Shown here one piece after another: positions 8,472 to 26,526 of a stretch of DNA of 64,000 nt (position 1 is its first letter; every line of letters starts with the position of its first letter). The position numbers and the translations under genes were made by a program. The notes under the pieces were generated by a model, which saw only the letters and a list, made by a program, of their open reading frames with translations, searched no databases and was not told the origin of the DNA. Source of the DNA: a virus (taxonomy: Duplodnaviria > Caudoviricetes); the IMG/VR virus record IMGVR_UViG_3300028591_000118, positions 1 through 64,000 of that record; one strand, 5' to 3'.

Positions 8472-9563
8472 TTAATCATTCACCGCCTTTTTCTTATTTC
8501 TACATTCTTTACATATACTATACCAACCATCTTTGCTGGTACTATTCTTTGAAAAAAAGTGGTTATGTGCTAATTTAATTTGACCACACCTACTACATTT
8601 TTTATATTTACCTTTTTCTTCTTGTAAGAAATGCCAATCTAACCAATTATTAGCAGCTCTTTCCGCCAATAATTTAGGTATTTTATTTCTCCATAAAGAT
8701 GAAAGATATTCAGGCGAATGCCGCACACCATAATCTATTTCAATTAATTCTTGTATTTTAGCATTAGATAATCCATCTATTTTATATATTAATAAATCAT
8801 AATAAAGAGGATAGGCTTCCCGCAATGTTTCTTCAATAAGATTATCTAAATCTTCCATCATCCATTTAATATCGCTACTAAAACGATCCCAATTATCTTC
8901 TTTTATTTTTGCATAGTTACATAAGAGAAGTGATATATGTGTTGGATTATATAAATTAATAATACCATTACTATGAACTTCACCATTCGCATCTATTGTT
9001 ATTTTTTCGCTCAAGTCCATGCGGGAGAGGCTCTTTATGGTGTTACTTGATCCTATTGTTTGTTTATATGCGGTACGGAGGATGTATTGATCATAACGCA
9101 TTTCTATTAATTGCTTGCGGAGGAGGTATGCTCTTTGTCCGCGGGCGGCGGCGCATTCCGCCTCAATCTTAGCTATGTTTTCCTGCATCTCCAGCATTCC
9201 AGGGATAGTTTCTATTTCTTCTTTTGTTATTGGGTTTTTTGGGGCAAAAATAATATTTTTATCATTGGCTATCATATTATAGATACCATCTTCCCCATTT
9301 TCTAATTTACCAATTAAACCTTCAAATGATAGCTCTCTCTTTTTAACTGTTACCATATGATTGTTTGTTAAAATATAATTTTTCTTTCTTTCTTTCTTTT
9401 CTATTGGTACTACGATATATTCTGCTAATTTATCTAAATAATATGGAGTTAATCGTTCTGAAGGAGTATTAGCTATTATTTCTTTTACTTTGATGACACG
9501 CTCTTCTGGTGTTTCTAATGAGTAATCCATTTTGATATACTCAAAATCTTTTTTCTGTTCCAT
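8472..9563 (-). CDS. HTH + Zn-ribbon protein, candidate transcription regulator/sigma-like factor
   Basis: Sigma-region-4-like segment DGLSNAKIQELI...SPEYLSSLW; C-terminal CSRC...CKEC; SigA promoter (TTGACA...TGATATAAT) on the minus strand at ~9588-9617. Confidence 0.45.
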   Translation of the reverse strand: MEQKKDFEYIKMDYSLETPEERVIKVKEIIANTPSERLTPYYLDKLAEYIVVPIEKKERKKNYILTNNHMVTVKKRELSFEGLIGKLENGEDGIYNMIANDKNIIFAPKNPITKEEIETIPGMLEMQENIAKIEAECAAARGQRAYLLRKQLIEMRYDQYILRTAYKQTIGSSNTIKSLSRMDLSEKITIDANGEVHSNGIINLYNPTHISLLLCNYAKIKEDNWDRFSSDIKWMMEDLDNLIEETLREAYPLYYDLLIYKIDGLSNAKIQELIEIDYGVRHSPEYLSSLWRNKIPKLLAERAANNWLDWHFLQEEKGKYKKCSRCGQIKLAHNHFFSKNSTSKDGWYSICKECRNKKKAVND

Positions 9564-10161
9564 TGTAATCTAATCTCCTTTCTACATTATTATATCAAAA
9601 ATTTTTCAAAATGTCAACTAGTAAGCCTTCGGCTTACTAGGTCATTGTCGTTTTAATATGTAGGAATTGCGTATGTATATTTTTAAATCGTATTTTATAA
9701 AAATGATTTTTTTATCGTATTCCCAATTTGAAAAAATATTTGGAGAGGGGACCGTGTTTTAATTTTGAAAAATTATTTGGAGAGAGTTTGGTCGAGCCCA
9801 AACCCAATTTCACTTTTTTCTAAATAAAAATCCCGAAATACACCCCCCGGAATGTTGTGTAGGAACGCTGTGTAGTCACGCATCCAGAAAAAAAGCAACC
9901 CTCCTAACAAACCCCGTCAAAATAAGACTGCTGCCAAGATAAGAGAGTAAGATACAACAAGAGAGTGAATGAGTGAGTTGATGAGACAAACAACATAACA
10001 AGAGAGAAAGATAAAGGAAAGAGATAGAATATATAAATAAATAATCAACAAGAGAAGAAAGATAATATTAATTGATGACAGATACTAATTGTGCGGGAAG
10101 TCGTTAGGTGCATCGAGCCGTTGCCGAATGGTGCAACTTCGCGCAACGGCCGGATTCGCCC

Positions 10162-10281
10162 ACCCGCATAATATCAGGGTTTTTTCATTCCACAAACCCG
10201 GTGTTTATCAGCGTTTCACGGATCCCGCAAAGAAACCCAGTATTTATGCGGGCTCGCGGATCCAGTATTTATGCGGGTTTC
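10162..10281. repeat. Four imperfect copies of AAACCCAGTATTTATGCGGGTTT (first one inverted)
   Basis: acccgcataatatcagggttt (10162), aaacccggtgtttatcagcgtttc (10194), aaacccagtatttatgcggg (10234), ccagtatttatgcgggtttc (10262). Confidence 0.75.
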
Positions 10282-10475
10282 AGCCGGTGAGTTTGTTTCT
10301 TGTAGGTGTGTATTTTTTAGGATTCTATCGAAAAAGATATATTTCTGTATTAGTGTTACATCAAAATAAAAGCAAAATCTTTTTATTTTTTTATCAAAAT
10401 AGTTGTAGACAAACGTGTTAGAATGTGATATATTATAATCAAGGAAAGGGAAATACAGAAAGAGAGGTAAAGGAT

Positions 10476-10625
10476 ATGACAAACACAAAGACTTACAGAA
10501 AAGAGTTTCAGTACAGAGGACAACAGATAAATTACTTCAACAAGGTTCGTGCCAATGCTAATGTAAAGAACGCAACAATGTACATCACAGCTGATGGTAG
10601 AAAAGTTGTAGAATACAACTACTAA
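10476..10625 (+). CDS. Small hypothetical protein
   Basis: Promoter, GAGAGG RBS and ATG at 10476. Confidence 0.65.
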   Translation: MTNTKTYRKEFQYRGQQINYFNKVRANANVKNATMYITADGRKVVEYNY

Positions 10626-10982
10626 AAAAATAAGGAGGTTAATAAAATGAAAAAATATATAGTAAGTATTTTTGATGGCTCATCTACAACAAAGTACATC
10701 ACCGAAGATGTAGATATCTACAGAGCTGAGAATAAGATAGTAAAGTATCACACAGGACTAAAAAGAGATATAATAAAAGTTGAAACGACAGAGATAAGAG
10801 GTTGAAAAATCTCTTATCTTGCGCGCGTCGCAGGCGAATCCACAGCATTCGCCAAGACGCGAATTTTGCGCTTTTGTGCAATATTGCTAAAAAATGGATC
10901 ACAATTTTGTTTATTTTGCTACTTGCATTTTATCCCGTTATGGTGTATAGTATAATCAGAAAGAGGAAAGGAGGACTTGCAA

Positions 10983-11415
10983 ATGACTAAGATGATAAAC
11001 TTCGATATGGATGGAACATTAGCAAACTTCTATGGTGTTTGAAGGTTGGTTAGAAGATTTAATGAATAAAAATGCTAAACCCTACGCACAGGCAACACCG
11101 CTTTTCAACTTCTCTTCTCTTGCAAGAGTGCTTAACAGACTTCAGAGAGAAGGTTACGAAATCTGCATTATTTCTTGGTTAGCAAAGAATTCAACAGAAA
11201 CTTTTGATAAAGAAGTTACAGAAGTTAAAAAGGCTTGGCTTGCAAAGCATCTTCCTAGTGTTAAATGGGATAGAATTACAATTGTTCCTTATGGAACACC
11301 TAAAAGCACTTGCGGTTGCGGGATCCTCTTTGATGATGAAGAACCTAATAGAAAAGAATGGGGTGAAGGTGCTTACAATGTAGAAAACATCTTAGAAATA
11401 TTGAAAAAACTTTGA
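10983..11415 (+). pseudogene. HAD-family 5'-nucleotidase-like gene split by a +1 frameshift
   Basis: MTKMINFDMDGTLANFYGV stops at TGA 11040-11042; the +1 frame continues EGWLEDL..., colinear with intact paralogue 18786-19250. Confidence 0.8.
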
Positions 11416-11484
11416 AAAAATAGTTGACAAACGTGCAAAAAAGGAATATAGTATAATTAAAGAAAGGAAAGAGAGGTAATTAAA

Positions 11485-11721
11485 ATGGCAAACAAATTTA
11501 ATGATGAATATAATGTTTTTGTAGAGCAAAAATGGCATAAAAGAAAAACTTTTTCAGAAGATGAAATTAAACTCATCAAGTCAGCAAAAAATTATCTTGA
11601 TAATTTAGTTGAAAAAATAGATAATGGAGATTATTCTATTAGCAACTGTACCTACAGTTATGAAATAACTTTTCATTTAATTGATATAGAAGAACACCCT
11701 TATTGGAAAAAAACAAATTAA
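11485..11721 (+). CDS. Hypothetical protein
   Basis: Own promoter and GAGAGG RBS. Confidence 0.7.
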   Translation: MANKFNDEYNVFVEQKWHKRKTFSEDEIKLIKSAKNYLDNLVEKIDNGDYSISNCTYSYEITFHLIDIEEHPYWKKTN

Positions 11722-11968
11722 AAGAGAGGTAACTAAAATGTGCGGGAACCACTTTCCGCACATTTGTTATGCGGCGGGCCGCTGGCGCGTTGCTTTTACA
11801 CGCCAGCGGCCGAATTTCCATTATACCACACCCAAGCACATTTTGTCAATAGTAAAAATAAATAAAAAACTAACTAAAATGATCCCAAAATTTGTGCAAT
11901 ATTTTTCTTAAAAAGGCTTGCAAAAGTCAAAAGGGTATGGTATATTATAATTACAGAGAGGGACAACG

Positions 11969-12080
11969 GAATGGCGGATACCCAATCGGTGAGATAGTTG
12001 CCAATACTTACAAAAGTAAGGGGTTATCAATACTAGGGGTTGTTAATTCTTGAAAGTAAGCACACAACGGAAACCATTCC
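11969..12080 (+). ncRNA. Putative structured small RNA or 5' leader
   Basis: Starts just after a promoter; closed by GGAATGG/CCATTCC with internal hairpins; no ORF. Confidence 0.4.
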
Positions 12081-12648
12081 TAAACTAAACAAGAGAGGTA
12101 ATTAAAATGAAGAATTATGAGGTTGCTATTTATACAGATTTATTAGAAGTTATAATTTATGTTGTTAAAGATTGTGTTAATGAAGAAAATGCTTGTCGCA
12201 GGGCATTTTCTCAATGGTATCATGGTTATGGTATTGGAAATGTTAGAGATATAGTTGTAACAGCATTATGATTACAATACTACCTTTTAATACACTTCTA
12301 CCTCCTATTGCGGCGGGCGTTGGTGTAGAATCCGACGCCCAAGACCGCAAAAAACAAGAGAAGAAGAAAAAAGAAAATGCAGAAGATATTTTTGAAAGAA
12401 TATTAGAAACTGAAATAATAAAAATATGCGGGAAGGCGTAAGTCTTCCCCTTTTTTGAGCTCGCCGCAGACCATCCGGCGCGGCGAGTTTTTCGCATTTA
12501 CCTGGATCCCGCACCTTTTTATAATCAACTTTGCAAACCAAAAAAAATTAAAAAAAATCCTAAAAAAGTGTTGACATTTATCCACGGGTGTAGTATTATA
12601 TAATCAAGGAAAGGGAAAACACCTAAAATAGAAAGAGAGGTAACTAAA

Positions 12649-12846
12649 ATGATGACACAGGCTGAAATGATTAAGTACGATATGATGGTTGATATGGGTA
12701 TCTGCACCGCAGATGAACTCAATCTTGCTTTTAACCTTATAGGAAATTGGACAGAAACAATTAATAAGATAATCTACTTCCGCACAGGTTACAGAGATTA
12801 TGAGCAATACATCCAATCTGAAATGGAAGGAGATGAGGAAGATTAA
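12649..12846 (+). CDS. Hypothetical protein
   Basis: Promoter, RBS and a terminator at 12849-12875. Confidence 0.7.
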   Translation: MMTQAEMIKYDMMVDMGICTADELNLAFNLIGNWTETINKIIYFRTGYRDYEQYIQSEMEGDEED

Positions 12847-13197
12847 AATTAGGCGGGAAGGCATTCCCGCCTATTTCTTATTTTCTATAATTTGAAAAAA
12901 TTAAAAAAATTTGATATAATATATATAGAAAATAAAAAATAAATAAAAATTAAATTCCTATAATCCTTTTCTTTTTGGCGGCACGAGTGCGGCTCCTTTT
13001 AGTCGTGCAAGTGCCGAATTTTCATTATACCACAGTTTTGCACATTTTGTCAACTGGCAATTTGCACAAAGATTTAGATCCGTGGATCCCGCAATTTGTG
13101 CAATATTTTTTATCTAAACCCTTGCAATTTTCTGTCCGTAGTGGTATTATTATTACAGAGTTAAGGAACACCACCAAGTGAAAGAGAGGTAGTTAAA

Positions 13198-13407
13198 ATG
13201 ACATTTACAAAAACAATTTCTGTAGATAATGAACATATTAAAAATTTTATTGAAGATACTGTTGATAATATGATTGAGAGTCTCTATATTTGGTTAGACG
13301 ATGGTTATAATATAAGTCCTGAAGATATTAAAAATGATGAATATCTTTATCTTCTAGAAAAACTTAGAGATGAAATAGAAATAAGAAGAAAAAAAATACT
13401 TCAGTGA
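13198..13407 (+). CDS. Hypothetical acidic protein
   Basis: GAGAGG RBS. Confidence 0.65.
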   Translation: MTFTKTISVDNEHIKNFIEDTVDNMIESLYIWLDDGYNISPEDIKNDEYLYLLEKLRDEIEIRRKKILQ

Positions 13408-13427
13408 TAGAAAGAGAGGTAGTTAAA

Positions 13428-13625
13428 ATGACAAAGGTTATAGAGTACGCTTCAGTTTCACCCGCAGTTCTTGATAGTATAGTTAGTGCTCTTGGTGTAT
13501 TTTGCACGTGGTCTGAAGTAGACGAAGATAGATTTGAATTTACTGTCTGCTCTTATGGTCAGGGGGCACCTTACCCCATGACAAAAATTCAAGAAATATT
13601 AAATAGGTATCCTGCATGTGCATAA
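13428..13625 (+). CDS. Hypothetical protein
   Basis: GAGAGG RBS before MTKVIEY. Confidence 0.6.
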   Translation: MTKVIEYASVSPAVLDSIVSALGVFCTWSEVDEDRFEFTVCSYGQGAPYPMTKIQEILNRYPACA

Positions 13626-14011
13626 CATGCAGGTCAACAAAAGGAGAATAAAATGAGTACAACGGAAATGCTTAATATCTCAGTAGCCTTAAATATACTT
13701 TGGCCTATTGTGGCAATAATTACATATTTATTTTGTTAGGCGGGAAGCGCTTATATTGATTTAGCGGGAAAAATAATTCCCGCTATTTTTGACGGCCCGC
13801 ATGCGCATCACACACCTCGCGCAAGGGCCGCATTTTGCGTATAGGCTGGTTTTTAAGTTTTTTAGATCCACATTGCGTATTGTATATATTGCATAAAAAA
13901 TCCCATTTCTTTTTGTGCAACTTTTTATTAAAAAATCCTTGCAATATATACACGGGTATGGTAACATATAATCAAGGAAAGGGAAACACCCTAGGAAGTG
14001 AGGTAATTAAG

Positions 14012-14464
14012 ATGACAAAGGAAACAATGATTAGAAATTACAGAAAATTCAGTGCGGCGGATGCTTATATCCTTGGCTTTATATATGGCGGTCAGGTCTA
14101 TATGGTTGAGGTTAAGGACATAGCGCCTCGCTATATGAAAGTTGAGCGTTGTTCTTCAAGGAATGGCGGATATAGGAAACTTCAGTTCAGACTTAATAAC
14201 GCTTATAAGGAAGAACTTATACGCAAGGGGGCAAGGGTTATAGGCACACCCGATATACTTGATGGACAGTATAACAAGGGCGTTGAGTTTGAAAGAGTTG
14301 TCTATAACGAGTTTGGTCAGACATATCGTGGCAAGGATAGCGTAGGCTTTTGGGTATCAGGTGACATAACGGTAGATAACAAGGAACTTCAGGTCAAGTT
14401 CGAGGGTGCACAGATAGTAGTAGAAAACACACTTGAGAATCTCAAGAAAAGGGTAAGGGGTTAA
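14012..14464 (+). CDS. Hypothetical protein, possible PD-(D/E)XK-like nuclease fold
   Basis: Likely start MTKETMIR behind GAGG; KGVEFE...GDI...ELQVK motif. Confidence 0.5.
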   Translation: MTKETMIRNYRKFSAADAYILGFIYGGQVYMVEVKDIAPRYMKVERCSSRNGGYRKLQFRLNNAYKEELIRKGARVIGTPDILDGQYNKGVEFERVVYNEFGQTYRGKDSVGFWVSGDITVDNKELQVKFEGAQIVVENTLENLKKRVRG

Positions 14465-14720
14465 AGCCCCCTGCCCACATAGGAGGCATAATATGAATGT
14501 AATTGAGTATATCAGAAACAGATCAGGAAGCACATACGGCAAGCGCATAAGAATTCTTGATAACTACACCCACCACAGTTTAGGACCGTGGACCTGTAAT
14601 GCGGATAGGGACATCATGGATATAAAAGTAACTGAAAAAATAATTTTTATTTTTGTAAAATAAGTGTTGACATAGCAAACATAATATGGTATAGTATTTA
14701 TAGAAAGAGAGGTAATCATT

Positions 14721-15038
14721 ATGATAAGCATAACAAGAGAAGATATGAACAAGGCAGTAGAAAATCTTCAGACAGAGCGCGGAAGGGCTTCAGTGGTAGA
14801 TTTCTTAACTGTCCTCTATGGAATTATTAGCGGAGATTATATGGTTTTAGCAGAAGAAGACCGCATCCGCATAATAAATGAATTTACAGATAGGTATGAT
14901 GAAGCCTATTGGCAGGGTTATAATGAAGCCCGAGAAGCCTATGATGGCACCTCTGATGATGATTATGAGGAGCCTGAAGATATAGATGATGATTTTGGAT
15001 ATGATGCTTATATGGGTTGTTATACATATGATTGTTAA
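14721..15038 (+). CDS. Highly acidic small protein
   Basis: D/E/Y-rich C-terminal half; own promoter. Confidence 0.7.
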   Translation: MISITREDMNKAVENLQTERGRASVVDFLTVLYGIISGDYMVLAEEDRIRIINEFTDRYDEAYWQGYNEAREAYDGTSDDDYEEPEDIDDDFGYDAYMGCYTYDC

Positions 15039-15060
15039 TTAAGAAAGGAGAATATTTTTT

Positions 15061-15336
15061 ATGTATATTAAAATTACTTGCTCAAATGGTTTTTGCGGTT
15101 GCGAAGAAGATTTTTATGAAGAAGTAAAAAATGAAGGTGAAGCAGATGACCTTACATATAATATATTAAATAATGATTATGCTTTTGCCGAGCCTGATGG
15201 AAGATTTCTTCCTGGCGCTTCCAGTTTTGATGATACTGATTATGAAGATTATGAGGAAGAATATGATGATTATGTTAATAATTTAGAAGGTTGGTGGGAA
15301 GAAATTACAGAAGAAGAATTTGAGGATAATAAATAG
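15061..15336 (+). CDS. Highly acidic small protein
   Basis: CSNGFCGC followed by a D/E-rich sequence; terminator at 15336-15366. Confidence 0.7.
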   Translation: MYIKITCSNGFCGCEEDFYEEVKNEGEADDLTYNILNNDYAFAEPDGRFLPGASSFDDTDYEDYEEEYDDYVNNLEGWWEEITEEEFEDNK

Positions 15337-15521
15337 AAGAAGGGGGTAACACCCCTTCTTTTTTTTGTGTCGGGGCGCGCACGATTGCTTTTCAACCATG
15401 CGCGCCCCTATTTTCCTGTCAAGATACAATTTGCACAATTTTTCATCTGATTTTTTATGCAATCTGCCTATTGTAATTATCCTATAATCTGATATAATTA
15501 GTATTAGAAAGAGAGGTAAGC

Positions 15522-15767
15522 ATGAAGAAATTTTTTAGAATTGAAGAGCCTTATAAGTTTGAAATGAACGATTTGCGTGCAGTAATTCAGATAATAAATG
15601 TAGTCCTAATTATGATTTTTGGTCTGTCTGTTTCATGGTTTGGACTAGCCCTTGCAATTTGTGGATTGATTAAGGATTTCACAAAAGACCGCCATATAAA
15701 TGGAATTTTAATGCACCTTGCATCCGCAATATTAAATATTTATTTTTTAACACTTCTTTACAAATAA
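15522..15767 (+). CDS. Small membrane protein
   Basis: Two to three hydrophobic segments; RBS. Confidence 0.65.
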   Translation: MKKFFRIEEPYKFEMNDLRAVIQIINVVLIMIFGLSVSWFGLALAICGLIKDFTKDRHINGILMHLASAILNIYFLTLLYK

Positions 15768-15848
15768 GTGTTGACAAATTAAAAAAATTATGTTATTATA
15801 AATATAGAAAGAAACAAAAAAGGTTTCCAAGAAAGAGAGGTATTTACA

Positions 15849-16031
15849 ATGACAAAATTGACTTATGACATTATTACTAGAACAGGTATCACCTACAATG
15901 CAGATACTTACGCTATGGCTCAGAGAATAAAGGGTGATAACCCTGGCTCTATTATCAAAAGGTGCTATTCGCCCATCCCCGAAAAGTCTAATCTCTTTGA
16001 TAAGATAAAGAGAGTAAAGACTGGAAAGTAA
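15849..16031 (+). CDS. Hypothetical protein
   Basis: Promoter, RBS and terminator. Confidence 0.6.
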   Translation: MTKLTYDIITRTGITYNADTYAMAQRIKGDNPGSIIKRCYSPIPEKSNLFDKIKRVKTGK

Positions 16032-16195
16032 TCAAAAGGTGCGGGTTTGTCCCGCACCTCTCTTTTATTTTTAAGATCGAACATCTGTTTGGTTGCACGT
16101 GCCCCCGAACAAACTTTCGATAATTATTTTTGAAAAAAGTGTTGACTTTTATAATTAGATATGTTAATATAATTACAGAAAGAGAGGTAATTAAA

Positions 16196-16387
16196 ATGGA
16201 ATACATAATTAGTACTATAGTTGAATTTGATGTAGAAGATTTAGCAGAAAAAATGTTTTATTATCTTGATGATGTAATGGATGATACTGGAAATGGTGAA
16301 AATTACAGAGATTTAACTAATGAACAGAGAAAAGATTTAGACTGTGCAATCTTAAAAAAGGCTTTAGAATTAGCAGAAAGAGAGTGA
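16196..16387 (+). CDS. Hypothetical acidic protein
   Basis: RBS before MEYIIS. Confidence 0.6.
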   Translation: MEYIISTIVEFDVEDLAEKMFYYLDDVMDDTGNGENYRDLTNEQRKDLDCAILKKALELAERE

Positions 16388-16653
16388 TTAAAATGTCTAC
16401 TAGATTTTATGTACCTTGGATACAAAGAAATGATTGGGATTCAATTCCTTATGACCTTGGTGTTTTTTCTTCTATTGAAAGAGCAGAAGAGGCTATTATT
16501 GAAGTATTAAGAAATTTTTGTCAAGAAGTATTAACTTTAGAAATTTATCAAAGTATGACAGAAGAGCCTGAATATCTCTTTGGAATACATGAATGCAACT
16601 TAAATGAATTAGGTATTTATCATGAACTTTATTCAAAACCTATGGGAGTTTAA
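16384..16653 (+). CDS. Hypothetical protein
   Basis: Coupled to the previous gene (alternative start MSTRF); terminator follows. Confidence 0.6.
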   Translation: MIKMSTRFYVPWIQRNDWDSIPYDLGVFSSIERAEEAIIEVLRNFCQEVLTLEIYQSMTEEPEYLFGIHECNLNELGIYHELYSKPMGV

Positions 16654-17001
16654 GAGGAGCCTTGGCTCCTCTTTTTATGTAAACCGACACGTGCGACACG
16701 CAATGCGTATACGCGCTCCCGCAAAATCATTTAACCAAAACCGCAAAATCTTTTTATTGCAAAATTAAAAAAAATATATTATAATAAATACATAAGATAA
16801 AGAAATAAAGAAAGCGACTTAAAAAAGAGTGGACAACCTACCTAGTCGACAAAGGAAAACCGCCCTAGTCAATTTCAAAAGTTTGAAAACTTTTTAAAAA
16901 AATTCAAAAAAAACTATTGACAATTAAATAATAAAATGATATAATAAATATATCAAATGAAACAAGTAAACAATATTTCAAAAAAGAAAGAGGTGCTTAT
17001 T

Positions 17002-17403
17002 ATGGCAAACACAGAGAACAAGGTAACTTATGTATCAGCAGTTGATTTCGCTCTTAACTACTTTGAGGGCAAGGAAGATGTACCTGCTGACATTGTAGAA
17101 AAGATGGGTGCGCTCAAGGAGAGCCTTGAAAAGAGAGCAAACGCAAAGCGTTCAAATAAGAAAGTCGAGGAGAATGACGCTCTGCGTGATGCACTTCTTG
17201 GTGCTCTTGGTACAAAGGGTGTTAGAGTTGCTGACATTATGAAGATGGATGGCTTCACAGAGTTTTCTTCACAGAAGATTTCAGCCCTCCTTTCACCTAT
17301 GGTTAAGGATGGTAGAGTAGTAAAGACCATCGACAAGAAAGTCGCTTATTTCTCACTTCCTACAGAAGTAGAGGTAGAAGTAGCGGTTGAGGTTGAGGAG
17401 TAA
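17002..17403 (+). CDS. Winged-helix-like DNA-binding protein (paralogue of 22477 and 37708)
   Basis: FSSQKISALLSPMVKDGRVVKTIDKKVAYFSL helix-wing motif. Confidence 0.65.
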   Translation: MANTENKVTYVSAVDFALNYFEGKEDVPADIVEKMGALKESLEKRANAKRSNKKVEENDALRDALLGALGTKGVRVADIMKMDGFTEFSSQKISALLSPMVKDGRVVKTIDKKVAYFSLPTEVEVEVAVEVEE

Positions 17404-17622
17404 TCCTCAACCCCTCTAAAAGAATAAAATGACGCAAGGCGAGGTATGTAAGACCTCGCCTTTTTGGCGCCGCGCTTGCGGGTTGCACCTTTTCGCAAGC
17501 GCGGCGAATTTCGCATCAGCCACCCTCCCGCACAAAATAAAAATCGAAAAAATTTTCAAAAAACCTCTTGACAATATCCCAAAATGGTAGTATAATTAAA
17601 CTATCGAAAGGAGATAAGGGGT

Positions 17623-17952
17623 ATGACAAAGGACAAATTAATTGAAAAGATTATGAAAGAAGCCGAACTTGATGGTGAGCCTTTAACAAGAGAAGAAGCA
17701 GAAGAAGTTGCGGAAATGGAAATTAAAGCCAAAGGTATCAAGGTTTATGAACAGTCAGAGAAGAAAGACCGCAAAAAGCGGGAAGTCAAGCCTGATGAAG
17801 AAAAGGTCAAGTTAATAAATCTTATTTCTGAAACTCTTTCTACTGTTGGCTTGAATACTTCCATTCTCAATCCACAGAGAGAGATAACCTTTTCTGTCAA
17901 TGGTGCGGAATACTCTTTAACTCTAATTAAGCACAGACCGCCTAAGAAATAG
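17623..17952 (+). CDS. Hypothetical protein (distant paralogue of 20915)
   Basis: Shared DEEK/SDEK helix and C-terminal beta strands. Confidence 0.65.
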   Translation: MTKDKLIEKIMKEAELDGEPLTREEAEEVAEMEIKAKGIKVYEQSEKKDRKKREVKPDEEKVKLINLISETLSTVGLNTSILNPQREITFSVNGAEYSLTLIKHRPPKK

Positions 17953-17966
17953 GCGGAAGGTGCTAG

Positions 17967-18039
17967 GTGCGGCTAGCTCAGTAGGTAGAGCACTAGACTT
18001 TTAATCTAGTTGTCATGGGTTCGAACCCCATGCCGCACA
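17967..18039 (+). tRNA. tRNA-Lys(TTT)
   Basis: Full cloverleaf; anticodon arm CTAGA-CTTTTAA-TCTAG; GGTTCGAAC T-loop. Confidence 0.92.
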
Positions 18040-18289
18040 TTTACTACCTTTAATTACCTCTTACCTTACCTCAATGGGTGACGCACGCAATGCGTCATCC
18101 GCACGTGCAACGGCAATGCGTATAAAAAAAATTTTTAATTTTTTGAAAAATATATTGACTTTATTTTTTTAATGTGATATACTTAATTTACCAAATGAAA
18201 GAGAGGAAAATTAAAAATGAAATATTTATTAGTAGATGCAGGAAATGGCTTTTGTGGTTGTAATGAAGAAAATTATGAGGTAAGATAAA

Positions 18290-18475
18290 ATGACTAACGC
18301 AGAGAAATTTCAAGAAATTTTTAATCTTCCAATAAGTGAAATGCCTAGTGACCCTTGTGATATAATAGATGAAAATATTTGTATCAATGCTGATGGATGT
18401 GAAAACTGTCCTCTCTATCATTTTTGGGAAAAAGAATTTCAAAAGTACAAAGTATCTCGCTCGTCAAGAAAATAA
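18290..18475 (+). CDS. Small Cys-rich protein
   Basis: MTNAEKF...C..C...C..C pattern. Confidence 0.6.
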   Translation: MTNAEKFQEIFNLPISEMPSDPCDIIDENICINADGCENCPLYHFWEKEFQKYKVSRSSRK

Positions 18476-18785
18476 AAAAATTTCAAAAAAATGCTTGACA
18501 ACTATTAAAAAGTATGGTATTATAATTACAGAAAGAGAGGTAATAAAAATGTTTCAACCCTATAAAATTATTTTCAAAAGTGATACAGATGAAAAAGAAT
18601 ATTTACAATATTGCTTTACTTATAATATGCCAAAAGCTATTGAAGAGATAATAGAAAAATACACAGGAGGTATAGTAATGATTATACCTTTATGTCACTC
18701 AATAAAAATTTGGAAAAAATGTAAAAACTTATTGACAATAGAAAGATAATATATTATACTATTATTAGAAAGAGAGGTAAAGCAA

Positions 18786-19250
18786 ATGGAAAATAAAACA
18801 CTTGTTTTTGATATGGATGGTACAATCGCAGACCTTTATGGTGTAGAGAATTGGCTTGAGGACTTAAGAGCCGAAAATCCTAGACCTTATGAGGTAGCTA
18901 GACCGCTTTATGATATGAATGCACTCAATGCGTTACTTGACATCTTCAAGTTACAGGGTTGGAAAATTGTAGTGACAACTTGGTTGTCAAAAGGTAGTAG
19001 CAAGGAATATGACAGACTTGTCAGAGAAGCAAAACTTGCATGGCTTGAAAAGTATAACTTCCCTTGTGATGAGGTACACCTTATAAAGTATGGAACTACA
19101 AAGGCTAATTGCACAAGAAGAAAAGGCGGTTTTCAAGTTCTTATTGATGATAATGAAATGGTCAGAAAAGGTTGGAACTTGGGTGCGGTGATTGACGCTA
19201 ATGAAAACATTATTGAAAAGTTGACAGACCTTTTAGAGCAGGTGGCTTAA
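18786..19250 (+). CDS. HAD-superfamily 5'(3')-nucleotidase-like protein
   Basis: VFDMDGT and LIDD motifs. Confidence 0.8.
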   Translation: MENKTLVFDMDGTIADLYGVENWLEDLRAENPRPYEVARPLYDMNALNALLDIFKLQGWKIVVTTWLSKGSSKEYDRLVREAKLAWLEKYNFPCDEVHLIKYGTTKANCTRRKGGFQVLIDDNEMVRKGWNLGAVIDANENIIEKLTDLLEQVA

Positions 19251-19388
19251 GCCACCCGCTCTGTGTATCGCACGTGCCGCCGGCAATGCGTATGATCAAA
19301 TTTTTTTAATTTTTTTCAAAAAATATGTTGACTTTATTTTTTTAATGTGATATACTTAATGTATCAAATGAAAGAGAGGTAATAATCC

Positions 19389-20126
19389 TTGAGTAGAAGA
19401 AAAAAATTTTTAGTAGTAGACACAGAAACCGCAAACACCATTGAGCAACCTTTACCTTATGATATAGGTTGGGCAATATGTGACAAGAATGGACATATCT
19501 ACGCAGAGCGTTCTTATGTAGTAGCAGAAGTTTTTTGTGACATGAAAGATACAATGAAAAGTGCCTATTATGCCGAGAAAATTCCTCAATATTGGGATGA
19601 TATAAAGGCAGGTAAAAGAGTGCTTGCGCCTATGTGGACTATATATAAGGCTATGAGAGCTGATATAAAAAATTATAAAGTCAAGAGTGTAGGCGCATAC
19701 AATATGGCTTTTGATAAAAGAGCATTAAATAACTTGATTAGATATGTGTCAAAATCATGGTGTAGATGGTGGTTCCCTATAGGTGTTGAGTTTTTCTGTA
19801 TCTGGAATATGGCTTGCAGTGCGGTTTTGAATAGGTCAAGTTACATTGATTTTGCTTATAAGAATGGCTTGATAAGTGAATCAGATAACATTCAGACTAG
19901 CGCAGAGTGTGCATACAAATATCTAATGAAAAATAGCGATTTTGTTGAAAATCACACAGGGTTAGAGGATGTCAAAATTGAAGTTGAGATAATGGCTTAC
20001 TGTTTCAGACAGAAAAAGAAACTTGACAAAGAAATAAATAGTGCTTGTTGGCGCAAGGTACAAAAGAAAAGAAAAGAACTTGACTTGCGGAAGGTGTTCG
20101 CTCAGGCGGACACCCTCTGCGTATGA
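19389..20126 (+). CDS. DEDDh 3'-5' exonuclease
   Basis: ExoI VVDTET, ExoII AYNMAFD, ExoIII HTGLED. Confidence 0.85.
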   Translation: MSRRKKFLVVDTETANTIEQPLPYDIGWAICDKNGHIYAERSYVVAEVFCDMKDTMKSAYYAEKIPQYWDDIKAGKRVLAPMWTIYKAMRADIKNYKVKSVGAYNMAFDKRALNNLIRYVSKSWCRWWFPIGVEFFCIWNMACSAVLNRSSYIDFAYKNGLISESDNIQTSAECAYKYLMKNSDFVENHTGLEDVKIEVEIMAYCFRQKKKLDKEINSACWRKVQKKRKELDLRKVFAQADTLCV

Positions 20127-20252
20127 CCGGAGCGCACGTGCGGGGATACGCAATGCGTACAACCGCACTTTTTTAATTTTTTGTAATCTTTCTATTGACA
20201 TTTATAAAAAAATATAATATAATAATATTAAAGAAAGAGAGGTAATCTAGTT

Positions 20253-20774
20253 ATGGCAAAAGTAAAAGGTATTAAAAAGTTAAACAAGGCTATTCTTGAA
20301 CAGTTTGCACAGTTTGGTATTGAAAAGACAGTAGTCACAGATGAATTTTCTTATATCTATGCTAAAAATAAAATTACTTACAAAATAACAGAGGATGACC
20401 TTGAAGATAAGTTATTCTGCGAACATGTTAAAGAGCGTTTTGGGTATGAGGTCAAGTATCCTTTTATCATGTTTATGTTGCATGAAGTAGGTCATCATTT
20501 GAATAATGATTGTATTGATGATACATTAGAAGATTTTTGCGCTAGAGAAAAAGAGCGCATTGAAGAAGAAATGATTGAAGCATTAGCCACAGATGAAGTT
20601 AAAAAGTTAGAATGGCAGTATTTCACCTTGCCTGATGAAATCATGGCAACCGCATGGGCAGTGGATTGGGCTAGAGAACACCCCACAGAGATTGAAGAAA
20701 TGTGGAACGCAATCGAAAAGGCTTTTCATAAGTTTTACGCAAAAAATCTTGATATGGCAAGTCTTATAAACTAG
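20253..20774 (+). CDS. HEXXH zinc-metallopeptidase-like protein
   Basis: LHEVGHH followed by a downstream E..A..WA motif. Confidence 0.65.
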   Translation: MAKVKGIKKLNKAILEQFAQFGIEKTVVTDEFSYIYAKNKITYKITEDDLEDKLFCEHVKERFGYEVKYPFIMFMLHEVGHHLNNDCIDDTLEDFCAREKERIEEEMIEALATDEVKKLEWQYFTLPDEIMATAWAVDWAREHPTEIEEMWNAIEKAFHKFYAKNLDMASLIN

Positions 20775-20914
20775 GCGGAAGGCGAACATCGAACAGGTGT
20801 TCGCCGCACGTGGCGCCCGCTCGCGTATAAAAATATTTTTGAATTTCTAAAATAAAAGTGTTGACAAGTTACTATTTATGTGATAATATTAGTATAGAAA
20901 GAGAGGTAGTTAAA

Positions 20915-21331
20915 ATGCTAGTTAAAACAAAGAATGGCTCATCAGTGGCTATCCCCGATAATGAAATAGATAGACTAGTTGAAAGTCTTGACATTTCTAT
21001 TGCTGATGCTATTGACCTTTACCTTGAAGACCATGGTATGCAGAAAAATGAAGAACAGGAAGAGTTAGACAAGAAAGCCAAGAAAGAAGGTTTTAAGTTG
21101 ACTAACTCAAGTGCAGACACAGACAAGCGCAAAAAAGGCGCACCTAGAACTGTTAATGTTTCAGATGAAAAAAAGGAACTTTTTGATAGTATTTTGTCAA
21201 ATTTGACTAGATGTGTGCCAGTTGAGGCTGAAAATATCACAGTTTTGAAAGAAAATAAACTAATTGAGGTCAAAATTGGTGAAAAAACTTTCAAAATTGA
21301 TGTCATTGAAAGCAGAAATAAAAAGAAATGA
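20915..21331 (+). CDS. Hypothetical protein (paralogue of 17623)
   Basis: RBS before MLVKTK. Confidence 0.65.
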   Translation: MLVKTKNGSSVAIPDNEIDRLVESLDISIADAIDLYLEDHGMQKNEEQEELDKKAKKEGFKLTNSSADTDKRKKGAPRTVNVSDEKKELFDSILSNLTRCVPVEAENITVLKENKLIEVKIGEKTFKIDVIESRNKKK

Positions 21332-21492
21332 TAATTTTTGTGCGAATTTTCACATTTTTTGTGAATTTTCGCACAATTTAACCCGCACGTGACATCCGCA
21401 CCGCGTATTTTATTAAAAAATTAAAAAAAATTTTCAAAAACTATTGACTTTCATTCATTCTTTTGTTATAATTATATACAGAAAGAGAGGTA

Positions 21493-21681
21493 ATGAAGAT
21501 GCCAACAGAACAAGAGATAAGAGAAAGAATAAATGATTTATCTGAAAAGTGGTATGATATAATCACAGAGTTATGTGCAAAAGCCTATGTAGATGGCTTT
21601 TCAGAGGGAGTTAAAAATGGACAAGAGGACAATGACCAAGAAAGCTTGGGTAGAATTGCAGAAAAGTCACAGAGTGACTAA
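21493..21681 (+). CDS. Hypothetical protein
   Basis: Promoter and RBS. Confidence 0.55.
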   Translation: MKMPTEQEIRERINDLSEKWYDIITELCAKAYVDGFSEGVKNGQEDNDQESLGRIAEKSQSD

Positions 21682-21761
21682 TCAAATGAATACAGGAACT
21701 AGGACAATGAAGTCCGCAAAATATCCTACAAGACAAGAGAGAAAGAAAGAGGCGGCAAATT

Positions 21762-22010
21762 ATGAATGAAAAGAAAATGCTTGAAATGAATATTGCAGGT
21801 GGGATGGATGCTTATGTGCGGGAAGTGATAGGTGATGATGACATCACTGACTATTGGAATATGTGCGGTGTACCGGATGCGTGTGATGAAGAGATGCTAG
21901 AAGAAATAATTGAAACACCTCTTTGTTTCAGAAATATCTGCGCCGCTTTTGCAAGGTGTTTAGATCTTGAAATAGAAAATGAATATTATGAAGATGATGG
22001 TAATTATTAA
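21762..22010 (+). CDS. Hypothetical acidic protein
   Basis: RBS; D/E-rich. Confidence 0.6.
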   Translation: MNEKKMLEMNIAGGMDAYVREVIGDDDITDYWNMCGVPDACDEEMLEEIIETPLCFRNICAAFARCLDLEIENEYYEDDGNY

Positions 22011-22476
22011 AGGCGGGACCCGCAATGCGGGTCTTGCACGTGGCACGCAATGCGTACACCGACGCCCGCGCAAAATTGTGCTATTAAAAATCAAAATGTT
22101 TTTATTGATTTTTATAAAAATATATATTATAATATATACATAAGATAAAGGAAATGAAAAACAGTTTGAGCAAATGGCGCTTTTCCTTGAACAGCCCGAA
22201 ATCGTATGTTTGGTTCAACAAATAAAAAATAAAAAAAGTTGTTGACATTTTCAAAATCTTATGATATAATAAATATAAAGTTAAGGGATTTGAGTTTGAC
22301 AAGGGGATTGGCAGAAACAGATCCTAGGCAGGAAACAGACACACTCTTATCCGCTCGAAATTGAAAAAAGTTGCAAATTTTTTCAAAAATCCCTTGACTT
22401 TATAAAAAAGAAATGATATAATAAATATATCAAAGGTAACCAATAAAAATTTTATTTAAAGAAAGAGGTGCTTATT

Positions 22477-22851
22477 ATGGCAGACGCAACAGTTAAGATG
22501 ACACAGAAGGATTTTTTCAATGAGATTATCGCACTCGCTACAGAGAATGGTAGAGAGGACATTGTAGAGTTCGCAAAGGGTAGAATTGCTATTCTTGAGA
22601 AGAAGAAGAGTTCTAGCAAGCCTAGTGCAAAGCAGGAAGAGAATGAGGTTATCAAGGCAGACATTATTGAGTGGCTTGCCGATAATGGTGGCGTAACTGT
22701 ATCTGATATGCTTAAGGTCGAGAAGTTTGCAGACTACTCTTCACAGAAGATGTCAGCACTCCTTAAGCAGTTGGTTGACGCTGGCAAGGTTGTTAAGACT
22801 ATGGACAAGAAGAGAGCACTCTTCTCAGTCGCCGAGGTAGTGGAAGAGTAA
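22477..22851 (+). CDS. Winged-helix-like DNA-binding protein (paralogue of 17002)
   Basis: YSSQKMSALLKQLVDAGKVVKTMDKKRALFS; same RBS context and related terminator as 17002. Confidence 0.65.
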   Translation: MADATVKMTQKDFFNEIIALATENGREDIVEFAKGRIAILEKKKSSSKPSAKQEENEVIKADIIEWLADNGGVTVSDMLKVEKFADYSSQKMSALLKQLVDAGKVVKTMDKKRALFSVAEVVEE

Positions 22852-23033
22852 TCTTCCACACCTAGTTCAAAGGGCAAGGTATGAAGACCTTGCCCTAATT
22901 TGTACCTTTCACTATACGCAATGCGTGTCACACGTGTAAATACGCAATGCGTATTCTCGCTAAAAAAATAAAAAAAGTGTTGACAAATAAAAATGAATAT
23001 GATATATTATATATAGAAAGAGAGGTAAATAAA

Positions 23034-23270
23034 ATGTTTAATGATTATGATGTGATTGAAATTAAGGTAAAGGATTTTGTTAATGAAGAATTAAGTGACG
23101 CATTAAAGTATAATACCCTTGAGGATGCTCGCAAGTGTCGCGCAATTGCGTATGGTGCGGTGCAGTTTGCAATCAATAATCTTTTTCCTTGTTATAATGA
23201 TGACCTTGCTAATTGGTGGGAAGATGAAGCATACCCTAAATTTACAGAAAAATTTGGAATGAGGTTTTAA
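23034..23270 (+). CDS. Hypothetical protein
   Basis: RBS before MFNDYD. Confidence 0.6.
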   Translation: MFNDYDVIEIKVKDFVNEELSDALKYNTLEDARKCRAIAYGAVQFAINNLFPCYNDDLANWWEDEAYPKFTEKFGMRF

Positions 23271-23272
23271 TT

Positions 23273-23500
23273 ATGATAAATGTATATATGAAAGATGATG
23301 ACTATATTTGCGAACTTTGGGGTGCAAGCACCAAGCACCCTGATAGTGTTTTCAAAATGTCACATTTCAAAATAAATGAATATGTAGATAAAAAGTATCA
23401 AGTATTTCAGTGGTTGCTTGAGTGTGCTAGTAAATTAAGTTGGCCATTCCACGCAAAAGAACTAACTGAATATGCTCTTAAACATTGGTATAATTGGTAA
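23273..23500 (+). CDS. Hypothetical protein
   Basis: GAGG RBS; operonic. Confidence 0.55.
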   Translation: MINVYMKDDDYICELWGASTKHPDSVFKMSHFKINEYVDKKYQVFQWLLECASKLSWPFHAKELTEYALKHWYNW

Positions 23501-23516
23501 AAGAAAGGAGAATAAT

Positions 23517-23729
23517 ATGTTTAAACATGAAATTGCAGTAGATAATTTTGCAGATGCTGAAACTTTGTTAGAAGTACTTATCAATAATGGTTATGTAGTA
23601 TTATTGAGCAAGGAAGAAAAATTATGGATAATAAATTATATCTGGTCAGAAAATAATGCTGATCGGAATGATGTTGTCTTTATGAGTAGGGAGGAATATG
23701 AAGATGAAATTTTCCGCGGGGATGAATAA
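23517..23729 (+). CDS. Hypothetical protein
   Basis: AGGAG RBS before MFKHEI. Confidence 0.6.
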   Translation: MFKHEIAVDNFADAETLLEVLINNGYVVLLSKEEKLWIINYIWSENNADRNDVVFMSREEYEDEIFRGDE

Positions 23730-23760
23730 TCTCCGCATTTTTTATGTGGGAATGGGTGAT

Positions 23761-23809
23761 GTTATGTAAACCGGCACGTAGGTTTACATAACTCTATGTT
23801 ATGTAAACC
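23761..23809. repeat. Three copies of GTTATGTAAACC (direct, inverted, direct)
   Basis: 23761-23772, 23781-23792 (inverted), 23798-23809. Confidence 0.8.
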
Positions 23810-24264
23810 TTTTTGGCGGCGCGCAGGCGAGCCAGGTCTCGCCGAGGAAAGCCGAATTCCACTCCCAACACACCATACGGCTTTTTTTGCTGGTTGTTTG
23901 ATCTTCGTCTCATAGCGCCCCGGATCCCGAAATGTTTGATCATAGGGCGGTGCGTATAGCGGCAGCAGGCCAGGTTAATTATCTCCGGAGAGCCTTTAGG
24001 CTTCCTGCCCTTGACTTTTAAAAAATTTTATGTTATAATATAAAAAAAACCTAAAATTCTTCCGCATCCTTCAAATTTAAGATCTTTTCTTCCAAATGAT
24101 AAAATATTCGTCCGACTATTTTTGATTGAACAAGAGAGGACAAGAAAGCTCTTCTCGTGGATGAAAATCAGTCTTTCCGCCACTCAATTTCCGCAGGCTT
24201 GAAAATTATAAAATTTTATGATATAATATATATATAAAATAAAGAAAGGAGAATATTTTTATAT

Positions 24265-24540
24265 ATGCCAACAAAAGAGAAGATGAGAGCCCTTAACAAG
24301 GCGCTGGACCAGCTCCTGGCTGACGGTTTTACTGTTAAGGACATAGCGGACGCCGCTGAGAAGCGCGACGGCCTTATTAAAGTTATGCTTGAGCAGAAGC
24401 GCAAGTCAGTAATAGATGCAGTAATAGAATACTTCAAGATAATTATGCCTAATCTGGATATAGAGCGGGAACCTGTCGCTAAGGAAGTAGAAGAGCAGCT
24501 AAAGTCATTCGAGGCTGCTATACGAGAATTTTTAGAATAG
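24265..24540 (+). CDS. Hypothetical protein
   Basis: Promoter and RBS. Confidence 0.6.
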   Translation: MPTKEKMRALNKALDQLLADGFTVKDIADAAEKRDGLIKVMLEQKRKSVIDAVIEYFKIIMPNLDIEREPVAKEVEEQLKSFEAAIREFLE

Positions 24541-24665
24541 TCAACAATAGAGAGAATAGAGGTGCGGGAAGTACCTCTATTTTAATATATAATTATATAA
24601 CGGGTGCGGGAAGGATAAGGATAAAATATAAGGGAAGATGGGATTGGTCCAGGTGCACCACAACT

Positions 24666-24714
24666 CACCCATTTACCCATTTACCTATTTACCTATTTAG
24701 CTCATTCACCCATT
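24666..24714 (+). repeat. Tandem 8-mer repeat (Y)ACC(Y)ATT
   Basis: cacccatt tacccatt tacctatt tacctatt tagctcatt cacccatt. Confidence 0.75.
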
Positions 24715-24803
24715 CCTCTGCCTACTATTTCTATCTCCTATTCATCCTAACCTACTTCTTTTATTATTCCATTCTCTAGCTTACTAATAAACCTAATAAT
24801 TTA

Positions 24804-25328
24804 TTATTTATTATCCCCCATTCCCGCATAATCCTTATATTTCATTAAATATATAGCTCTAACATCATTTAATTCTATTATCTTCTCATCAAATGCATTA
24901 TAAGTATAATATATATTTCCAATACAAATTCTAAATACATTATCTTCAATCTTCATAATTAAACTATTACTTCGTAAATCTCTATCTAATACCTCAACTC
25001 CAAGATCTTTTTTAATAGGCATATTCTTAAACATTTCTTCTTTTTGATAAAAATTTGCTTTACTAAAATCTCTTAACCAAGAAACAACATCAACAAAAGA
25101 AAGAGTAGCTAACTTATCTCTTATATCTTGCGGAAGACTGTTATACACACTTAATATATCATCATTATTATCTATTATAGATAAAAAATCAATAACATCT
25201 GCGGCAGAGGGGTTCTTTTCCATGTATTTATTTAATAATGCTTCTTTCATATTTATTTTTGACCTCCAAAAAAGAATTCTTTTTTCAAATCGAATTTCAA
25301 CATTTCTACCGAAACCTACCATCCCCAA
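24804..25328 (-). CDS. Hypothetical protein (start probably MKEALL at ~25250)
   Basis: GGAGG RBS upstream of the internal ATG. Confidence 0.55.
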   Translation of the reverse strand: MGMVGFGRNVEIRFEKRILFWRSKINMKEALLNKYMEKNPSAADVIDFLSIIDNNDDILSVYNSLPQDIRDKLATLSFVDVVSWLRDFSKANFYQKEEMFKNMPIKKDLGVEVLDRDLRSNSLIMKIEDNVFRICIGNIYYTYNAFDEKIIELNDVRAIYLMKYKDYAGMGDNK

Positions 25329-25388
25329 TTAACTTCATTATCCGGGGCCCCAATAAGGAGTACAGAGCGAAGCTCTGTGCTCCGCAAG

Positions 25389-25745
25389 TCTGTATATGAT
25401 TCTGTACTTTGTACAGAATCTGTACAGACAGATTTACTATTATATTAGTATCTGTCTGTATCTGTCTGTCTGTATTTCTGTACAGATCTGTATTTCTGTA
25501 TTTTTCTGTCTGTTTTTTCTATCTAAATCTGTACAGATTTTATTATTTTCTGTATAAAATCTTAAAATTCGAATATAGCTCCTTCTATTTTTTTCTGTAT
25601 AGATTCTGTCTTTAAATCTTTATCTTTCTGTATTTTCTGTACAGAATCTGTATTTTTCTGTACCTTCTGTACAGATTTTTCTTTTTTTTGTATAATATTT
25701 TCTGTACAGATTTGTACAGATTCTGTATTTTCTGTATTTTTCTGT
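25389..25745. repeat. Iteron-like TCTGTA/TCTGTACAGA repeat field, candidate replication origin
   Basis: Perfect palindrome TCTGTACAGA at 25419, 25477, 25528, 25636, 25666 and 25701 plus many TCTGTA/TCTGTC half-sites; overlaps the 3' end of 25562-26140. Confidence 0.75.
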
Positions 25746-26363: not shown

Positions 26364-26370
26364 AATCTTT

Positions 26371-26526
26371 TTAGTCCTCCTCTTTTTCACACTTTTCTAT
26401 ACAAGTGTCAAGATAATATTCAATCGCCTTCTTAATAATATAAGACAAAGATCTATCATCTTTTTTAGCAATTTCTTCTAACTTCTCTCTTATTTCATCT
26501 GAAAGTCTAAGTGAAAGCTGTGCCAT
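26371..26526 (-). CDS. Ribbon-helix-helix (CopG-like) regulator, not in the ORF track
   Basis: MAQLSLRLSDEIREKLEEIAKKDDRSLSYIIKKAIEYYL; GGAGG RBS. Confidence 0.8.
   Translation of the reverse strand: MAQLSLRLSDEIREKLEEIAKKDDRSLSYIIKKAIEYYLDTCIEKCEKEED

Follow-up and report, generated by a model that had tools for sequence, protein, structure and literature searches.

Predicted back-to-back sigma-A promoters in a repeated junction cassette of a siphovirus early region

Why should a phage carry, at two places among its early genes, inverted -35 and -10 hexamers within about 130 nt of each other? The question is raised by IMGVR_UViG_3300028591_000118, a 122-kb virus record whose positions 1 to 64,000 (the 64,000 nucleotides analysed, referred to below as the window) contain both sites. 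The initial annotation offered two answers: a promoter of the Frpo type, formed in single-stranded DNA (ssDNA) or in a cruciform by pairing of the two arms, or a pair of promoters placed back to back, of which the leftward one transcribes nothing but the adjacent GC hairpin. The second answer is supported by the anatomy of the sites and by their conservation in relatives. Both sites are probably copies of a repeated junction cassette with back-to-back sigma-A promoters, the backward one of which is predicted to fire into a hairpin. The architecture of the cassette, its paralogy within the window, its conservation in at least 78 units, the fixed place of a hairpin whose sequence varies, and the absence of a gene behind the backward promoter are established. 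The cassette is conserved, and its new part is the backward consensus promoter, a description of which was not found in the literature searched; the function of this promoter is predicted only.

Architecture of the two window copies

The cassette is a junction unit of approx. 155-200 bp that is repeated between small early operons. From left to right, it consists of the bidirectional terminator of the previous operon, a GC-rich palindrome, a backward promoter, the boxes TTGCACAAA and TTTGTGCAA, and a forward promoter, followed by a strong Shine-Dalgarno (SD) sequence and a small ORFan. The backward promoter matches the full consensus (-35, -16 TRTG, -10, and a G-rich discriminator), whereas the forward promoter is weaker and carries TTGCAA as its -35. 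Promoter strength is expressed here as the number of hexamer matches out of 12 in a consensus scan, with the TG of an extended -10 flagged, and ssDNA and RNA folds are scored as z against shuffles of the same sequence. The features of the two copies (cassettes 1 and 2) and of their surroundings are as follows.

11736..11765, no strand assigned: bidirectional terminator hairpin of the upstream operon (gene 11485-11721), from RNA folds and a terminator search; also the predicted 3' end of the cassette 1 backward RNA, with UUUUAGUU after the stem on the minus strand
11777..11811, no strand assigned: GC-rich palindrome or hairpin of cassette 1, from folds on both strands
11820..11849, minus strand: predicted backward sigma-A promoter of cassette 1, TTGACA (11849-11844)-18-TATAAT (11825-11820), 12/12 with TG
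11891..11899, plus strand: TTTGTGCAA box of cassette 1, ~20 nt 5' of the forward -35 and at -49 relative to the start of the backward -35
11919..11947, plus strand: predicted forward promoter of cassette 1, TTGCAA-17-TATATT with TATGG at -16, 9/12
12850..12873, no strand assigned: bidirectional terminator after gene 12649-12846, listed on both strands by the scan; also the predicted end of the cassette 2 backward RNA
12892..12920, plus strand: extra predicted forward promoter, TTGAAA-17-TATAAT with TG, 11/12
12979..13016, no strand assigned: GC-rich hairpin of cassette 2, from RNA folds and comparison with locus L005 of a related phage
13024..13053, minus strand: predicted backward sigma-A promoter of cassette 2, TTGACA (13053-13048)-18 with TGTG-TATAAT (13029-13024), 12/12 with TG
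13062..13103, no strand assigned: operator-like inverted repeat of cassette 2, TTGCACAAA (13062-13070) and TTTGTGCAA (13095-13103)
13077-13088, no strand assigned: palindrome GATCCGTGGATC, enclosed by the TTGCACAAA/TTTGTGCAA boxes of cassette 2
13122..13150, plus strand: predicted forward promoter of cassette 2, TTGCAA (13122-13127)-17-TATTAT with TAGTGG at -16, 9/12
10824-10861, 13793-13830, and 15372-15408: hairpins of cassettes that have no backward promoter

Both backward sites read TTGACA-18-TGTGG-TATAAT, which is a Gram-positive sigma-A promoter with a -16 region. In cassette 1, the spacer carries TGTG at -16, the promoter is conserved in relatives, and the initial transcribed sequence, GGAAATTCGG, leads directly into the hairpin, which is stable as a leftward (-30.8 kcal/mol, z -6.8) and as a rightward RNA (-28.2 kcal/mol, z -5.5). 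In cassette 2, the backward promoter appears on the plus strand as TGTCAA at 13048-13053 and ATTATACCAC at 13024, and the initial transcribed sequence is GAAAATTCGG. The forward promoters lead to genes: gene 12107-12271 is placed under the promoter of cassette 1, via a leader of approx. 155 nt, and gene 13198-13407 under that of cassette 2, where GTGGTATTAT ends at 13150.

The two sites are paralogous and lie in register, both halves recurring at an offset of 1204 bp. Identity reaches 85% over 41 nt around the backward promoter, and BLAST aligns 13013-13127 to 11809-11923 at 71% identity. The resemblance between the sites is therefore not due to chance.

No gene follows the backward promoters: in the 1.5 kb to each side of the two window copies, same-direction open reading frames (ORFs) with an SD sequence amount to 0 nt. 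Two ORFs that overlap cassette 1 were considered and rejected. The minus-strand ORF 11639-11821, as a candidate backward protein gene, begins inside the -10 and has no SD sequence; the plus-strand ORF 11738-11911 is made of the terminator, the hairpin, and the promoter and has no PHROG family. Moreover, no sigma-54 boxes occur at the window cassettes, and an Rfam search of 9000-26000 at E <= 1, which included CRISPR direct-repeat families, returned nothing at the cassettes; the only match above the gathering score in that interval is a tRNA-Lys. A blastn search of 11400-14000 against cultured phages gave no match.

Host sigma-A RNA polymerase probably fires backwards on double-stranded DNA (dsDNA). 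The product would be a short non-coding RNA with the hairpin at its beginning and its end at the terminator of the previous operon. According to the terminator search, the predicted backward RNA measures approx. 78 nt in cassette 1 and approx. 170 nt in cassette 2.

Motif symmetry and single-strand folding

Frpo elements are ssDNA structures located on the transferred strand of conjugative leading regions (PMC11541004), and Frpo/ssi ssDNA promoters were described by Masai & Arai 1997 (as cited in PMC11541004). The cassette resembles them in that inverted -35/-10 hexamers lie within approx. 130 nt and in that the region is expressed first after DNA entry. If it were an element of this kind, one strand, or a cruciform, would pair its arms, rebuild a duplex -35/-10, and permit transcription from ssDNA. 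The nested dyad symmetry seen at both sites is what such an element would display. All strings quoted in the initial annotation are present where it placed them, at both sites, and the motifs at 13024-13150 do follow one another in nested order (ATTATACCAC, TGTCAA, TTGCACAAA, GATCCGTGGATC, TTTGTGCAA, TTGCAA, GTGGTATTAT). The further claim that the match extends beyond the hexamers is borne out at site 1, where 7 of the 9 nt before the -10 agree; the agreement itself, however, consists of the -16 TnTG motif and a G run that are common to the promoter family. The -16 TRTG region is typical of Gram-positive sigma-A promoters. Among the related units described below, the T-N-T-G 5' of the -10 is fixed by the search pattern in the backward promoters, and in the 66 forward promoters its three defined positions hold T in 51, T in 54, and G in 49.

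As a fold, the ~130-nt inverted repeat does no better than shuffled sequence at either site. The ssDNA of 11815-11955 folds at -12.7 kcal/mol, a value matched by 25 of 200 shuffles (shuffle energies, -9.5 +/- 2.6; z -1.22), and that of 13019-13155 at -12.4 kcal/mol, compared with -8.4 +/- 2.2 in its shuffles (z -1.80). Fifteen copies from the window and related phages have a mean z of -1.26 when folded as ssDNA, with a range from +1.6 to -5.3, and four of them fold worse than their shuffles. A few relatives fold clearly better than shuffles, e.g., those at L005 (z -5.3) and L007 (z -3.7), as an Frpo-like element should; such weak and variable folds nevertheless indicate that long hairpin formation is not a conserved trait of the element.

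The compensatory changes that the initial annotation proposed to look for in relatives are likewise missing. The decisive test compared the backward spacer of each of 66 units with its own forward partner and with partners from other contigs. The spacer agreed with its own partner at 5.26 of 17 positions and with foreign partners at 5.43, and the observed value was reached in 4452 of 5000 permutations. The arms of divergent and of face-to-face promoter pairs are alike in showing no covariation. A blastn search of 11740-11965 against 72,556 plasmid records at E <= 0.01 gave no match. Moreover, either arm by itself makes up a complete promoter for dsDNA, with the canonical spacing of 17-18 bp. 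Instead of a conjugative leading region, the setting is a virus record that carries a terminase, a portal, and a phage sigma factor. Phages with terminase and portal packaging of this type deliver dsDNA.

The cassette thus differs from Frpo/ssi elements in lacking a stable single-strand fold, arm covariation, similarity to any plasmid record searched, and ssDNA entry; its arms read as ordinary duplex promoters. An Frpo/ssi-like element is an extremely improbable explanation and is rejected, and there is no evidence here for Frpo-type ssDNA promoters in a phage, which removes a false lead. The underlying observation holds for the symmetry of the motifs and fails for the fold. The symmetry reflects two promoters of the same family placed back to back around an inverted-repeat operator, and intrastrand pairing is not selected.

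Conservation, the GC hairpin, and possible roles

Relatives of the cassette were collected in two ways. A 21-nt pattern taken from the backward promoter retrieved four other viral contigs, and nhmmer with the cassette unit found 3-6 copies in each of them; these contigs have the same layout, and their alignment shows all parts of the cassette in register. Loci were then retrieved with the pattern TTGACAAAA-N8-10-GTGGTATAATG and scanned with the looser pattern TTGAC-N13-15-GTG[GT]TATAATG. Both patterns cover the promoter only and leave downstream sequence free, as ascertainment bias on downstream sequence was to be avoided. The unit counts given in this section (78 units, 73 of them unique, and 66 paired) refer to units among the matches listed by this promoter-only retrieval and are lower bounds.

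At least 78 units, from dozens of viral contigs, combine an A/T-rich initial sequence (G[AG]AAWTTCG) with a GC-rich hairpin that follows it. At least 85 other pattern matches lack this signature, and many of them have an SD sequence and an ATG next. The boxes, the hairpin, and the previous terminator occur in relatives in the same order. In particular, a divergent partner promoter lies within 135 nt in 66 of the 78 units among the matches listed, and the TTGCACAAA/TTTGTGCAA boxes recur at -49 and -16 from the backward -35. Because many cassette-bearing contigs have early genes in common with the window, they form one clade. The cassette is thus widespread and, in the literature searched, undescribed.

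The position of the hairpin is more constant than its sequence. Its first paired base lies 8-10 nt after TATAAT, i.e., at about +1 to +4 of the predicted RNA, in 57 of the 73 unique units among the matches listed, and the hairpin has a median length of 11 bp. In the same set of 73, there are 51 distinct 6-nt stem bases, and 90% of the hairpins have a z below -2 against their own shuffles. An orthologous subfamily keeps its pairing while the sequence changes, from GGCCCGCT...AGCGGGCC to GGCCCGCG...CGCGGGCC and GGGGCGCT...AGCGCCCC. No consensus structure emerged when a MAFFT alignment of 70 units was folded with RNAalifold, since hairpin length and register vary; hence the use of per-sequence structure statistics. 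The stems have no preferred strand: among 78 hairpins, the backward-sense RNA is the more stable in 38 units and the forward-sense RNA in 37 (Wilcoxon p 0.63), and with G-U pairs numbering 42 of 901 compared with 55 of 916, the stems are almost purely Watson-Crick on both strands. Hence, the hairpin may function in both directions or at the level of DNA. The apical parts of the hairpins often have common motifs, GGNCGTG(A/G) or CCGGAC, while the stems vary; these may reflect homology or a loop recognized by a protein.

The most likely role of the cassette, put forward tentatively, is that of a boundary device. Together, the hairpin and counter-transcription would intercept transcription running on from the previous operon, ahead of the regulated forward promoter, and backward firing would feed negative supercoils to that promoter. 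One box abuts the backward -35 and the other lies approx. 60 nt 5' of the forward start, which suggests, by analogy with p4 of phage phi29, that a regulator binding the boxes may shift the use of polymerase between the two directions.

Several observations weigh against this role or against the cassette as described. In cassette 2, the hairpin is stable only as a rightward RNA (-22.3 kcal/mol, z -4.05, with three G-U pairs) and is weak as the leftward one (-12.6 kcal/mol, z -1.27); it looks like a decayed orthologue of a perfect palindrome in locus L005. Decayed copies at ~10824-10960, 13793-13990, and 15372-15500 have kept the hairpin and boxes and lost the backward -10. No U-tract follows the hairpin in the backward direction. 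The hairpins are present and stable, and only GAATTTYC comes after the GC hairpin. A backward terminator-like site lies within 400 nt in only 48 of the 73 unique units among the matches listed (median predicted RNA, ~100 nt), and some backward RNAs may for this reason run antisense into the previous operon. Furthermore, a second consensus promoter faces the backward one across the hairpin in 19 of the 73 unique units among the matches listed (21 of 78 before duplicates were removed), e.g., at L083:518-570, L054:2728-2780, and L005:6311-6363, with a distance of 36-39 bp between the two -10s in 17 of the 19. The spacers of these pairs do not covary. Polymerase cannot occupy both promoters simultaneously, and no explanation fits well. 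Face-to-face pairs are hard to explain by insulation alone, hint that transcribing the palindrome, or its RNA, may be the point, and constitute the main unexplained feature. Within the window, the extra promoter at 12892-12920 points rightward into the cassette 2 hairpin and is thus convergent with the backward promoter; its predicted transcript folds with a z of -2.66.

The hint leads to a different view, in which the product matters more than the act of transcription. The backward promoter would be a dedicated promoter of great strength, and its product an abundant small RNA whose 5' terminus is a GC hairpin. As a cis-antisense RNA, it might target the 3' end and terminator of the preceding early mRNA as well as read-through from it; alternatively, it might be a decoy that occupies a host factor for RNA binding or defence. 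All known elements of promoter strength are at consensus, transcription would begin in a conserved, A/T-rich sequence (G[AG]AAWTTCG), and the hairpin lies within a few nt of the predicted 5' end. In Firmicutes, a 5'-terminal hairpin protects RNA from decay that depends on the 5' end. The cassette 1 backward RNA is, moreover, fully complementary to the terminator hairpin of the previous operon, and the face-to-face pairs would double the output of stem-identical hairpins. The variability of the hairpin speaks against such an RNA, because stems that differ in nearly every copy leave no single sequence-specific target apparent. The equal stability of the two strands and their similar G-U content likewise give no signal of the functional strand, the cassette 2 hairpin is weak in the very sense in which it would be transcribed, and the Rfam search described above found no known family. 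As an alternative to the boundary role, the small RNA comes second, as a lesser, though real, possibility.

A bolder form of this proposal appears rather unlikely. Here, the backward promoter and palindrome would be a dedicated device, spread over a large clade of uncultured Firmicutes-type phages, for flooding the cell with 5'-triphosphate GC-hairpin RNAs as early as the first minute of infection; about a quarter of the related units would produce them from both strands via face-to-face promoters 36-39 bp apart. The RNAs, or the loading of polymerase, would then serve host takeover or counter-defence rather than simple insulation.

A strong gene-less promoter beside a palindrome with A/T-rich flanks could also belong to a replication element, in which backward transcription across the palindrome would prime a phage origin, or activate it, by way of an R-loop or transcriptional activation. 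T4 oriF and oriG and the T7 primary origin are models for transcription-activated origins, and T4 has multiple origins. The copies are, however, many per relative genome (at least 5 in G003 and 4 in G002) and confined to early-gene junctions, and the transcribed palindrome has no G/C skew to stabilize an R-loop. A separate putative replication-like module, so named in the initial annotation without verification, lies at 24600-26612. An origin function is therefore very unlikely.

Should the backward promoters be active, the strongest promoters of a whole clade of large gut and rumen phages would be devoted to gene-less transcripts at every early-operon boundary. This would represent either a new means of fencing off and timing early transcription units or a new class of hairpin RNA, produced abundantly by phages. 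The cassettes may also be regarded as compact, portable, and very strong promoter/insulator parts.

One further observation concerns the backward promoters themselves. Their spacers are G-rich just 5' of the -16 TGTG, with G in 34-43 of 66 units at four positions, whereas the forward promoters are A/T-rich there. The same G-rich spacer segment is found in the window at 11826-11834, and the -35 is extended to CTATTGACAAAA. The segment and the extended -35 may together form an extra recognition element.

Related systems and the surrounding early region

The closest known kind of element is the PeSL (promoter-early stem-loop) cassette of T4-like phages (Arbiol et al. 2010, PMC2839356; Comeau et al. 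2014, PMC4122927). PeSLs pair a strong sigma-70 early promoter with a stem-loop terminator, have an SD sequence and start codon at the end, flank ORFans, and mediate modular shuffling (PMC2839356, PMC4122927). The cassette described here is likewise a repeated intergenic unit of approx. 100-200 bp that joins a stem-loop, a putative terminator or attenuator, to a strong early promoter of the host sigma-70 type with an A/T-rich upstream region (11919-11947 and 13122-13150), ends in an SD sequence and a start codon, and lies next to small ORFans, the early region being plastic. It is nevertheless a variant and not a member of this kind. A full-consensus promoter that faces backwards into a hairpin is absent from the PeSL descriptions (PMC2839356, PMC4122927). 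In addition, the cassette contains a second GC-rich palindrome besides the canonical terminator, as well as operator-like boxes. PeSLs belong to T4-like myoviruses, in which the cassettes recombine with one another (mini-circles, indels), in contrast to the siphovirus studied here, whose terminase is nearest to those of Schiekvirus, Geobacillus E3, Phass-1, and SPbeta-like phages. If the backward promoters do fire, the idea of mobile promoter-terminator cassettes would reach beyond the T4-like phages of Gram-negative hosts and include siphoviruses of Gram-positive-type hosts. At 11721-11740, a perfect SD sequence and ATG (AAAGAGAGGTAACTAAAATG) are joined directly to the terminator hairpin and open the 57-aa ORF 11738-11911. 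This arrangement resembles the remnant of a deleted gene, such as recombination mediated by cassettes would leave behind, and is only a hint.

Two other systems offer partial parallels. In Bacillus phage phi29, the divergent early/late switch of promoters A2b and A2c versus A3 is governed by the regulator p4. As in the cassette, sigma-A promoters stand back to back with inverted-repeat protein sites between them, one box abutting the -35 of one promoter and the other lying at about -60 from the other promoter. In contrast to phi29, the regulator of the cassette is only postulated, the backward promoter is gene-less, and the unit occurs in many copies per genome. Face-to-face promoter pairs are known from pIN/pOUT of IS10, whose RNA-OUT is a short hairpin RNA, and from the lysis-lysogeny switches of P2 and 186. 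The 19 related units with convergent promoters across a hairpin-forming sequence (their -10s 36-39 bp apart in 17) resemble these, and the backward RNA would be hairpin-like, as is RNA-OUT. Unlike those pairs, the convergent promoter of the window (12892-12920) lies approx. 100 bp from the backward -10, and neither promoter has a gene.

The record is that of a large uncultured siphovirus of a Gram-positive-type host. Its large terminase shows 43% identity to its counterparts in Enterococcus Schiekvirus-type phages, Geobacillus E3, and the gut phage Phass-1, and approx. 33% identity to SPbeta-like YonF. The interval 10-24 kb is a rightward early region with dense near-consensus promoters (many forward ones at 11-12/12) and terminators; a scan of the early region counted 27 terminator-like sites, compared with 9.5 +/- 3.0 in shuffles. 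The early genes are small and have a stereotyped SD sequence, AAAGAGAGGTAAYTAAAATG, at 6-7 gene starts. Eight of the 10 ORFs flanking the cassettes have no PHROG family, and 8 of 15 early ORFs have no homologues in related loci. The leader of the cassette 1 forward promoter, at 11953-12106, is unusually long and contains an 8-codon mini-ORF (ATG 11972); it has no Rfam match.

A third perfect sigma-A promoter, TTGACA-17-TATAAT with TG, lies on the minus strand at 9589-9617, directly 5' of the phage sigma-factor gene (8472-9563) and of a leftward block of phrog_3314, terminase, and portal. Given this consensus promoter upstream of its gene, the phage sigma factor is probably made early by host polymerase. 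Finally, a gene at 10983-11415 for a 5'-3' deoxyribonucleotidase-like (HAD) protein appears to be split. Its N-terminal DMDGTL motif is read from the ATG at 10983 up to a stop at 11040-11042, and the remainder forms ORF 11032-11415 in another frame (phrog_2643, E 7e-4). Intact homologues are found in approx. 39 related loci, and the split could be a frameshift, a sequencing error, or recoding.

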